Source: Candidatus Omnitrophota bacterium | GTDB taxonomy: Bacteria > Omnitrophota > Gorgyraeia > Gygaellales > Profunditerraquicolaceae | DNA: 60,996 bases | Assembly (NCBI GenBank): GCA_028710405.1 | Contig: JAQTUD010000001.1 | Span: 1 to 60,996 of the forward strand | Direction of reading: 5' to 3' | Part shown: positions 5,081-6,649 of the stretch, in pieces | How the letters are laid out: every line of letters begins with the position of its first letter | Position numbering within the stretch: position 1 is the first letter of the stretch | The notes under the pieces: model-generated | Told to the model about the DNA's origin: nothing | The model's input: the letters and a program-made list of their open reading frames with translations, nothing else | The model's database searches: none | Program-made: the position numbers and the translations under genes

Positions 5081-6649
5081 TTAGACCTTAGCGGCCTCCT
5101 TAGTCCTTCCTAAATTTGAGACGTCTACCAGTTTATCTCCCCAATAAAAATCAGCGGCCTCAAAGCCATGCTTCTTCCCCATCTGCCTTATTTCATCTAT
5201 TTTTTCCAGGGTAATATTACCCCTGCCAAAACTAAAATTCTCAAAACGCTTCTCTAGGGCCAGGATGATCGCCTCGGCAAAACATCCGTATAATACATCC
5301 TTTGCCGGCAGACCGGTATCCACCGGGAAAGTAACGGGTGTCGGAGACTTAGAAAGCCCTCCGGAGAATATCAGGATATCATCCCTGGTCACGGGGGCAT
5401 AAGAGATATTTTTAGGGTAACCTACGTCGCAGATAATGGCCCCGGGCTTAAACCACTCTGTTTTGAGGATAGAAGCGCTGACGCTGGCGCAGGCAATGAC
5501 CACGTCGGCATCCCGGACTGCCTGCTCGTTATTGGTGGTAGCGACTATTCTGGCTTTACGCAGAGAAGATAATTCTTTCTGCATACGGCGCAGATTTTCT
5601 TTGGTGCGGCCGGTAATAGTCAGGTGTCCGGCGGTCAGTGCGAAATGTCTGGCACAAGCGCTGCCGATATCTCCGGTGCCCCCGATAATAGCGACCTTGT
5701 CGCCGTTAATGTCTTTATTTAAGGCCCTGGCAGCCTTGTTTACCCCGTCTATAACCATTGCCGCGGTAAAGGTATTGCCAGTGGTTACCGGTATATCCAC
5801 CTCTTCGGTAATCTCGTGGCCGATCCTCTCGGCCACGATGGAAGAAAATCCTCCCAGGGTCACTATTCCTATACCTTGTTTCTCGGCGATCTTGCAGGCC
5901 CGGACCACCTTGCCCAGGATAGACCACATATCCCGCTCTATCATATCAGGGATAAAGGTAGCCACGAAAAAAGCCCCCCGGGTAGATTCGCCGCTCTTGG
6001 ATTTGAAATTATCCATATCATAAAGTTTAAAAGAAGGAGTGATGTTAAAAAGTTGGCCCAAGAATTCCTGCGAAGGCATCTTAAAGCCAGGGTCCAGCAT
6101 CTTTAAACATTTCTCCAGGTGTTTGACGTTGTAGAAATGCCCGATCACTCCAAAACCGTCAATAGTCGGCTTGCCCGTGCGTTTATATTCAGAGTAACGC
6201 AGGGCGATCGATCTCTTCTCTAATGCCTCCAGGATAAACTCAAAATTATTCTGTAATATCTTCTTGATATAGAGATCAGCGAATTCTTTTATCGCCGGGA
6301 TCCCCACCCTCAGACGGACATTGACCGTAACCCTTGTGCCTGTAGGTAAGTCCTGGAAACGCCACTCTCCTGCGAATTCCTCCAGGTCTCCTTCGATAGA
6401 GTGGAAATAAAGGGCGTTATTCTGCAGGTCTAAGGTATCCTCTTCTACCCAGGTTATGGGAACGCTGTTAACCAGGATGTGCCACTTGGTGCGCACAATA
6501 TTGCCTCTTTTCTGGATCGCCACCGCTTCCTTGACTGTAGGGATAAAAGAAGGAAAATCCTGGACCTTAGTTAAGAAGCGGATCACTCTCCATTTTCTGG
6601 CGGGTATGACCCTAGTAATACTTATCTCCATTATGTCATTATCCGGCAT
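5081..6649 (-). CDS. fusion of an SRPBCC (cyclase/dehydrase-like lipid-binding) domain with an acyl-ACP reductase (AAR)-like NAD(P)-dependent domain
   Basis: 522 aa. The N-terminal ~150 aa has the SRPBCC hallmark GDLEEFAGEWRF. The C-terminal ~370 aa shares collinear motifs with cyanobacterial acyl-ACP reductase as I recall it: GVIGH, LGGFSSI, TTGNTFTA, GGTGDIGSA, DVGYPKN, and GCFAEAIILALE..NFSFGRGNITLEKI (candidate catalytic Cys). Confidence 0.7.
   Translation of the reverse strand: MPDNDIMEISITRVIPARKWRVIRFLTKVQDFPSFIPTVKEAVAIQKRGNIVRTKWHILVNSVPITWVEEDTLDLQNNALYFHSIEGDLEEFAGEWRFQDLPTGTRVTVNVRLRVGIPAIKEFADLYIKKILQNNFEFILEALEKRSIALRYSEYKRTGKPTIDGFGVIGHFYNVKHLEKCLKMLDPGFKMPSQEFLGQLFNITPSFKLYDMDNFKSKSGESTRGAFFVATFIPDMIERDMWSILGKVVRACKIAEKQGIGIVTLGGFSSIVAERIGHEITEEVDIPVTTGNTFTAAMVIDGVNKAARALNKDINGDKVAIIGGTGDIGSACARHFALTAGHLTITGRTKENLRRMQKELSSLRKARIVATTNNEQAVRDADVVIACASVSASILKTEWFKPGAIICDVGYPKNISYAPVTRDDILIFSGGLSKSPTPVTFPVDTGLPAKDVLYGCFAEAIILALEKRFENFSFGRGNITLEKIDEIRQMGKKHGFEAADFYWGDKLVDVSNLGRTKEAAKV

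Follow-up and report, generated by a model that had tools for sequence, protein, structure and literature searches.

An Omnitrophota fusion of an SRPBCC domain with an AAR/PigE-type reductase, encoded beside a seven-transmembrane histidine kinase

The fusion protein and its active site

The window analyzed here is the whole 60,996-nucleotide stretch taken from contig JAQTUD010000001.1 of a Candidatus Omnitrophota bacterium. Near its left end lies a string of minus-strand genes that encodes a small HTH_17 protein, an acyltransferase, the protein studied here, a flavoprotein, a seven-transmembrane (7TM) histidine kinase, two receivers and the beginning of a type II fatty acid synthase/polyketide synthase (FAS/PKS)-like set. 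The protein of interest, which we call the fusion, joins an N-terminal SRPBCC domain to a C-terminal reductase domain related to AAR, the acyl-acyl carrier protein reductase of Synechococcus elongatus, and to PigE. Its open reading frame (ORF) runs through 522 aa with 0 internal stops, exactly at the coordinates given in the initial annotation, which named no strand, and GGGAG is found 8 nt ahead of the ATG. The host genome is a 1.16-Mb bin that is 86.7% complete.

Profile and structure-database searches assign each half of the fusion to a family. Polyketide_cyc (PF03364) matches aa 24-135 with 54 bits against a gathering score of 23.4 (E 2.5e-14; Pfam), and a sequence search of the PDB matches the N-terminal half to TTHA0849 (2d4r, E 4e-15). 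The model AcACP_reductase TIGR04058 matches aa 166-498 over model positions 2-336 of 339 (E 2.4e-53; NCBIfam), and the N-terminal reductase part of the PigE model matches the reductase region over positions 2-338 (E 5.6e-48; NCBIfam). Among solved structures, the best matches are AAR (6jzq, E 9e-38, collinear) and PigE (4ppm, E 6e-28). The fusion reductase is 29-30% identical to AAR over the whole AAR length and 17-19% identical to TAD. Public sources call homologues "predicted amino acid dehydrogenase".

All of the AAR-collinear motifs claimed in the initial annotation are present at the expected spacing in the translation, namely GVIGH (167-171), LGGFSSI (265-271), TTGNTFTA (289-296), GGTGDIGSA (323-331), DVGYPKN (408-414), GCFAEA (455-460), NFSFGR (471-476) and ITLEK (479-483). 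The motif that it quoted for the SRPBCC pocket, GDLEEFAGEWRF, lies at 87-98. Because it aligns over its full length with AAR as well as with the reductase domain of PigE and keeps the cysteine and TTG, the C-terminal domain belongs to the COG5322 (AAR/PigE-N) superfamily. The fusion scores 181.6 bits on TIGR04058, below the equivalog cut-off of 449.7 bits. The proposed likeness to AAR therefore holds for the superfamily and the active site and does not extend to the AAR equivalog.

We built an AlphaFold2 model from a 38-sequence alignment (A1). The model has a mean pLDDT of 88.7 and a pTM of 0.86. When it was searched with Foldseek, the reductase half matched AAR (6jzy) with a TM score of 0.86 and the SRPBCC half matched TTHA0849 (2d4r, START superfamily) with 0.92, both by target length. 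The next neighbors were TAD domains for the reductase half and TcmN-type aromatase/cyclase (ARO/CYC) domains for the SRPBCC half. The profile search, AlphaFold2 and Foldseek thus confirm both folds of a fusion that the initial annotation had proposed for an organism outside the cyanobacteria. With a score above the PF03364 gathering score and a helix-grip fold, the N-terminal domain is an SRPBCC member. In the model, this domain closes with a 40-residue helix (aa 118-158), and about 7 residues separate the helix from the first reductase strand (aa 166-170), so that the linker is predicted to be short and rigid.

In AAR, C294 is the nucleophile that forms the acyl-enzyme, 162-GATGDIG-168 is the dinucleotide loop, and R189, R193 and R314 surround the 2'-phosphate of NADPH (PMC7089970). 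The equivalent cysteine of PigE is Cys296 (PMC8341465), and TTG together with Cys also makes up the core that is conserved in the related TAD domain (bioRxiv 10.1101/2024.10.28.620694). We located the counterparts of the AAR residues by hand count on the sequence alignment to 6jzq, read against PMC7089970. C294 corresponds to C456 of the fusion, as the initial annotation had supposed when it described the catalytic cysteine as retained, and the dinucleotide loop corresponds to 323-329 (GGTGDIG). C456 is invariant in 38/38 aligned homologues (A1) and in a second alignment of 12 homologues (A2). T289, T290, G291, G323, G326 and G329 are, like C456, invariant or nearly so in the two alignments. 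Because C456, the TTG and the dinucleotide-loop residues are kept, the fusion is predicted to have all the catalytic machinery that a thioester reductase needs to form an aldehyde. In the 2'-phosphate pocket, R189 corresponds to R348, which is nearly invariant in the 38-sequence alignment, R314 corresponds to R476, and R193 is replaced by N352 with K350 close by. Since two of the three arginines have counterparts in this hand-read alignment, the sequence favors NADPH as the likely cofactor.

AAR residues R73, R79, K80 and Y247 serve in binding its partner ADO, and mutation of the basic residues abolished binding (PMC7089970). In the fusion, R73 is changed to D240 and R79 to G246, and K80 is kept as K247. 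A search for ADO (PF11266) found none in the 86.7%-complete host genome, and the same search matched in the Synechococcus elongatus control. Given the score below the cut-off, the change of two of the three basic ADO contacts and the ADO gene not found in the genome, the fusion does not belong to the AAR/ADO system of cyanobacteria. The reductase matches the AAR family, the catalytic cysteine is in place and both halves are read from one frame; on each of the three points that the initial annotation had named as decisive for its proposal, the sequence agrees with it.

Distribution of fused and split forms

The initial annotation regarded the fusion as unusual. We find instead that it is common in Omnitrophota. 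In a sample of 201 Omnitrophota genomes, 109 had some match, and about 65 had a full-length fused match free of stops. Because stop-free full-length matches occur in so many other genomes of the phylum, the fusion is not an assembly artefact. Its named homologues all come from Candidatus Omnitrophota, both domains are present in all 120 best clusters at 90% identity, and the ESM Atlas holds one 393-member cluster of the same two-domain architecture. Of the 150 top-scoring representatives in a library grouped at 50% identity, about 16 match across both domains. These data indicate that the fusion is a standard, common Omnitrophota gene.

Some relatives are longer. Among metagenome proteins, one has the order HTH_17-PilZ-SRPBCC-reductase (P0135, 722 aa) and two have PilZ-SRPBCC-reductase (P0136 and P0138). 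PilZ is a c-di-GMP receptor domain, and its position in front of the SRPBCC-reductase unit suggests that the enzyme may be under direct second-messenger control.

A tblastn search of species-representative genomes returned seemingly full-length matches in Tumebacillus avium, in Caldatribacterium and other Atribacterota, and in Endomicrobiaceae and other Elusimicrobiota. On inspection of the ORFs, these candidate fusions outside Omnitrophota resolved into two adjacent genes, an SRPBCC gene of about 147 aa followed by a reductase gene of about 360 aa. The same split form of adjacent genes is also found in several Omnitrophota. The fusion proper was found only in Omnitrophota records and a few metagenome bins. 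Fused and free reductase-linked forms have in common an SRPBCC signature of W56, W67, E69, F82, G87, D88, G94, W96 and P118.

We inferred a quick maximum-likelihood tree of 102 reductase domains with SH-aLRT support. One group (support 100, 21 rows) contains only fused forms from Omnitrophota, with the window gene inside it. A second (support 98, 17 rows) mixes fused and split forms from Omnitrophota and Elusimicrobiota. The third (support 97, 59 rows) is of Bacillota type and mostly free-standing, and includes the split forms of Atribacterota and Tumebacillus. The well-supported branches of this quick tree require at least 3 fusion or fission changes. We regard the SRPBCC domain and the reductase as a functional pair of long standing, which in Omnitrophota takes the form of the fusion. 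That the two work together is supported by their being fused in Omnitrophota, encoded by adjacent genes elsewhere and marked by the common SRPBCC signature.

Operon structure and gene neighborhoods

Table 1. Features of the fusion gene and of the gene string around it in the window.
Feature	Position	Strand	Evidence
Small HTH_17 (excisionase/MerR-like) protein, head of gene string	7253..7513	minus	PF12728, E 4.4e-17
PlsC-like acyltransferase, 198 aa	6639..7235	minus	PF01553, E 1.9e-25; below TIGR00530 cut-off
SRPBCC::AAR-like thioester reductase gene, 522 aa	5081..6649	minus	ORF; Pfam, NCBIfam and PDB matches; AlphaFold2 and Foldseek
SRPBCC (Polyketide_cyc / START-like) domain, aa 1-158	6176..6649	minus	PF03364; 2d4r fold match
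AAR / PigE-N-type (COG5322) acyl-thioester reductase domain, aa 166-522	5084..6154	minus	TIGR04058; PigE model; 6jzq, 4ppm, 6jzy
Cys456 codon, counterpart of AAR catalytic Cys294	5282..5284	minus	Translation YGCFAE; alignment to C294
Short GMC-type FAD oxidoreductase, 427 aa	3792..5075	minus	GMC_oxred_N and GMC_oxred_C
HisKA_7TM-GAF-HisKA-HATPase sensor histidine kinase	1603..3795	minus	Pfam
Two single-domain response regulators	1238-1603 and 844-1224	minus	PF00072
FabG-type 3-oxoacyl-ACP reductase	108-854	minus	TIGR01830, 307 bits against cut-off 297.75
Ketosynthase start, about 32 codons, cut by contig end	1-105	minus	PF00109 at 1-96

The genes from plsC to the ketosynthase are separated by intergenic gaps or overlaps of a few bases. 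The plsC stop overlaps the fusion start by 11 nt, and the kinase start overlaps the stop of the GMC gene by 4 nt. An HTH_17 homologue occupies the same place in related loci. The ketosynthase (KS) is completed on another contig of the same genome, C29 (2931 bp), which abuts the left end of the window. C29 carries residues 36-406 of this KS, in the numbering of its G155 orthologue, and behind it come genes for an acyl carrier protein (ACP), a FabA/FabZ-like dehydratase and a second KS, so that the operon extends beyond the window. The gene order across the window and C29 is that of G155, a relative with a closed contig, where the string continues with a CLF-like KS, a phytoene-desaturase-like flavoprotein, a second 7TM kinase and a receiver. 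Because two further FabF-type genes elsewhere in the host genome (contigs C11 and C91) can serve housekeeping synthesis, the FabG-KS-ACP-dehydratase-KS set looks dedicated to the pathway. This set in the same operon was overlooked in the initial annotation, as was the near-obligatory 7TM histidine kinase partner.

The GMC flavoprotein has weak matches to MftG and cholesterol oxidase models, and we take it to be a tailoring enzyme. Apart from the window, its gene turned up in none but the nearest loci (G155, L110 and L041). The window copy is unusually short at 427 aa and has weak 4Fe-4S (Fer4) matches at aa 145-166. The gene for the PlsC-like acyltransferase lies upstream of the fusion in only 6 of about 100 loci examined besides the window. 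There are only two PF01553 matches in the host genome, the PlsC next to the fusion and one other; the latter lies on contig C65 (3744-4130), inside an 881-aa open frame.

We called ORFs in 100 loci across relatives and grouped them into clusters by BLAST. Omnitrophota and Elusimicrobiota contribute 37 loci with fused or split forms, of which 35 have a 7TM kinase of the same cluster at most 3 genes downstream of the reductase, and one of the two kinase-less exceptions stops at a contig edge. In these loci a single-domain receiver usually follows the kinase. In the Bacillota-type clade, such a kinase is found at most 3 genes downstream in 0/59 loci.

The genes that lie between the reductase and the kinase vary. 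Beyond the GMC gene of the window, L015 and L016 have a short-chain dehydrogenase/reductase (SDR) of the epimerase/3-beta-HSD type, L020 has a class-III aminotransferase and a GNAT protein, and L028 has a class I/II aminotransferase and an ICMT/PEMT-type methyltransferase. The L028 string (genome G061, of the same family as the window genome, approximately positions 5400-10300) is headed by two tandem free-standing AAR-like paralogues, with a free SRPBCC match directly upstream of the first. After the paralogues come the aminotransferase, an unannotated 257-aa protein, the methyltransferase, the 7TM kinase and a receiver. In one Omnitrophota family, RND transporters are encoded upstream.

In Atribacterota and Tumebacillus, a class-III aminotransferase gene lies ahead of the SRPBCC gene. 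By analogy, an aminotransferase beside the SRPBCC-reductase pair would follow the logic of PigE. The free reductase of Bacillota sits in a highly conserved housekeeping string of birA, bioY, coaX, dus, an HTH_3 protein of about 179 aa, a 305-aa protein, the reductase, greA and lysS, as seen in loci L053-L117 (for example L079, L109 and L112). The 305-aa protein has no Pfam match and is also found ahead of the aminotransferase-SRPBCC-reductase set in Atribacterota.

We compared the membrane sensor of the kinase (7TM region, first 240 residues) between pairs of loci in which the reductases are 57-68% identical and the kinase cores (last 250 aa) 58-68% identical. Among the three GMC-bearing loci (window, L013 and L110), the 7TM regions are 66-67% identical. 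Between these loci and L014, L015, L016 and L058, which have another tailoring gene or none, identity is 23-26%. In most loci of family f30 the kinase gene comes directly after that of the reductase, and in two of them two small unannotated ORFs intervene; the f30 sensors are 42-80% identical among themselves and 27-30% identical to that of the aminotransferase-bearing L020. L014 and L058 are exceptions, as both lack an intervening gene and their sensors are only 18% identical. In the loci compared, the membrane sensor of the kinase swaps together with the tailoring gene.

Two other parts of the window and its relatives are recorded here. Upstream of the HTH gene, window positions 7647-9909 encode a free lipoyl/biotinyl-domain protein of 87 aa, a ligase of the LipB/LplA type and a flavoprotein of the dihydrolipoamide-dehydrogenase type, with no adjoining E1 or E2 genes. 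In G155 (locus L120, 1558-9231), downstream of the extended operon, a gene encodes a giant protein of 2557 aa that carries FlgD_ig, PPC, CHU_C and Por_Secre_tail domains and is probably surface-exposed or secreted.

Proposed function and alternatives

We consider it probable that the fusion carries out NADPH-dependent reductive release of a carrier-bound chain as an aldehyde, with the SRPBCC pocket holding the chain or the product, in a lipid pathway linked to signaling. An acyl chain on ACP or coenzyme A (CoA) would pass to Cys456, and reduction of the Cys456 thioester by hydride transfer would release the aldehyde. The acyl tunnel of AAR exits at Y23 and Y26 in its N-terminal segment (PMC7089970). 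In the fusion, the counterparts of Y23 and Y26 fall within aa 171-205; the SRPBCC domain would sit next to this segment, on the short rigid linker, and its hydrophobic pocket may take up the chain or the reactive aldehyde. The initial annotation had likewise suggested that the pocket could deliver or sequester the chain or the aldehyde, or that it could replace the contact with ADO. The substrate chain would likely come from the operon's own FabG, KS, ACP, FabA/FabZ-like dehydratase and second KS. In koreenceine biosynthesis, the proposed role of a COG5322-type domain is the release, in aldehyde form, of the chain made by a noncanonical type II PKS (PMC6498172). The aldehyde of the fusion could then be tailored by the adjoining GMC flavoprotein and PlsC-like acyltransferase. 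The module appears to be coupled to the 7TM-GAF histidine kinase and the bare receivers, and from this coupling we infer that the product would be either a regulated envelope lipid or a ligand of the kinase.

Several observations weigh against this reading. The TIGR04058 score lies far under the AAR equivalog cut-off, and the same fold supports other chemistry, for example in TAD. KS and ACP genes accompany the fusion (within 8 kb) in only about 6 of 21 loci, so that a carrier dedicated to the enzyme is not general among them. The plsC and GMC genes are confined to certain lineages. As the 86.7%-complete genome has just one other PF01553 gene, the PlsC beside the fusion may be a housekeeping enzyme, the cell's main lysophosphatidate acyltransferase. 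The loci in which the sensor swap is seen are few and mutually related. Moreover, since the kinase gene directly adjoins the tailoring gene at its 5' end, physical contiguity could account for part of the swap, as a single recombination block.

The two possible relations between enzyme and kinase draw on different evidence. The swapping of sensors and the variety of tailoring genes favor a ligand-receptor relation, and the PilZ fusions and the receivers without output domains favor the enzyme as a regulated output. Both could be true. In its strict form, the ligand-receptor relation holds that the reductase and the variable tailoring enzyme make a hydrophobic, aldehyde-derived ligand for the adjoining 7TM kinase, and not a bulk lipid, in the manner of CqsA/CqsS or LqsA/LqsS. 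We regard such a signal synthase/receptor pair as possible, although we would not expect it. The near-obligatory neighbor is a polytopic kinase without a periplasmic domain; its 7TM region varies along with the tailoring enzyme, unlike the conserved reductase and kinase core; the intervening genes differ by lineage (GMC; SDR; class-III aminotransferase with GNAT; class I/II aminotransferase with ICMT-type methyltransferase); and one family has RND exporters upstream. However, the fusion has no homology to known autoinducer synthases, being a COG5322 reductase and not a pyridoxal phosphate-dependent acyl transferase like CqsA or LqsA. The output regulators are bare receiver domains, the PilZ domain on the enzyme of some relatives fits a regulated output better than a signal source, and the swap may be the single recombination block described above.

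The preferred reading treats the SRPBCC domain as a passive lipid pocket. Alternatively, it could be catalytic, acting on an ACP-bound chain as a cyclase, aromatase or dehydratase in the manner of TcmN-type ARO/CYC proteins. The Pfam family is Polyketide_cyc, the ARO/CYC domains of TcmN, ZhuI and WhiE come next after TTHA0849 in Foldseek (TM 0.76-0.79 by target length), a KS, a CLF-like KS and an ACP belong to the operon, and the acidic residues E69 and D88 are invariant alongside the aromatic ones. We nevertheless consider a catalytic SRPBCC unlikely. Its identity to ARO/CYC domains is only 12-16%, and the closest structure, at 28% identity, is a START-type protein of unknown function. The ketoreductase and dehydratase genes imply a reduced chain and not a poly-beta-keto chain, and most loci have no KS or CLF nearby.

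The reductase fold could also serve other chemistry, such as four-electron reduction to an alcohol, terminal amidation like that of TAD or an amino-acid-dehydrogenase-type reaction as the old COG5322 label has it, or the protein could be a non-catalytic NAD(P)H or lipid sensor that feeds the kinase. A score so far below the AAR cut-off, the label given to homologues in public sources and the tight linkage to signaling genes would fit such a role, and TAD domains of the same fold have been proposed for different reactions (bioRxiv 10.1101/2024.10.28.620694). Yet the complete AAR active-site set is invariant, and identity is clearly on the side of AAR (29-30%) and not of TAD (17-19%). In addition, a class-III aminotransferase, which needs an aldehyde as in PigE, adjoins the pair in Atribacterota, in Tumebacillus and in one Omnitrophota locus. 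A departure from aldehyde-forming chemistry is thus quite improbable. The idea that the fusion opens an AAR/ADO alkane pathway of the cyanobacterial type has AAR homology alone in its favor, and we dropped it as having a negligible chance of being right, since the ADO gene was not found in the 86.7%-complete genome (the control was positive), the contacts R73 and R79 are not conserved and the score is under the equivalog cut-off.

Reductive aldehyde release by the fusion can be set beside several known systems. AAR of Synechococcus elongatus (TIGR04058; 6JZQ, 6JZU, 6JZY) has the same three-part fold, and its catalytic Cys, TTG and GxTGDIG loop are also found in the fusion. Unlike AAR, the fusion has an additional N-terminal SRPBCC domain, shares its operon with a 7TM kinase and type II FAS/PKS-like genes, and belongs to a non-photosynthetic, uncultured phylum. 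PigE (prodigiosin; 4PPM) and KecF (koreenceine) belong to the same COG5322 reductase family, and in them, too, the reductase is fused to or adjoins the next handler of the aldehyde. Their fused partner is a class-III aminotransferase, whereas that of the fusion is an SRPBCC domain, and the window contains no aminotransferase. TTHA0849, the Coq10/RatA-type members of PF03364 and the TcmN-type ARO/CYC proteins have the helix-grip fold and mostly aromatic conserved positions, as does the SRPBCC domain of the fusion. In contrast to these START/SRPBCC proteins, this domain is covalently joined to a reductase, and among the free forms examined its own signature occurs only in those linked to a reductase.

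CqsA/CqsS and LqsA/LqsS resemble the present loci in that the gene for a lipid-modifying enzyme adjoins that for a polytopic kinase without a periplasmic domain and the sensor diversifies with the chemistry. The enzymes are unrelated, however, and the receivers here have no DNA-binding domain; the resemblance is one of layout only. ElbD, from myxobacterial ether-lipid synthesis, pairs an acyl-thioester reductase with an AGPAT/PlsC-type acyltransferase. It differs from the fusion in that its reductase is of another family and it is a single multidomain protein; PlsC is encoded beside the fusion in just a few lineages. TabE, from tambjamine synthesis, was considered as a relative and set aside, as its reductase is of the aldehyde dehydrogenase type and unrelated.

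The initial annotation took the architecture to be uncharacterized. In agreement with this, our literature search found no paper that describes the fusion and none that mentions such an association with a kinase. Searches on the architecture, on COG5322 in Omnitrophota and on HisKA_7TM function turned up nothing relevant beyond PigE, KecF, TAD and AAR.

Reductases of the AAR type have been described in the synthesis of alkanes by cyanobacteria and in a small number of pathways to alkaloids and pigments. In Omnitrophota, their catalytic core comes with a built-in, putative lipid pocket in a standard gene of a whole uncultured phylum, located in operons with dedicated chain-building genes and a membrane kinase. 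If the fused SRPBCC domain does capture the aldehyde, it would be useful for the production of fatty aldehydes, alcohols and amines. If the product is an envelope lipid, the fusion would point to an unknown lipid chemistry of Omnitrophota. If it is instead a ligand of the kinase, it would represent a new class of bacterial lipid signals with many natural variants. More speculatively, the loci of Omnitrophota and some Elusimicrobiota might form a large undescribed set of lipid-signal circuits, in which an SRPBCC-assisted reductase and a lineage-specific tailoring enzyme would make an aldehyde-derived molecule, a co-diversified 7TM-GAF kinase would read it, and some of the enzymes would be gated by c-di-GMP through PilZ.

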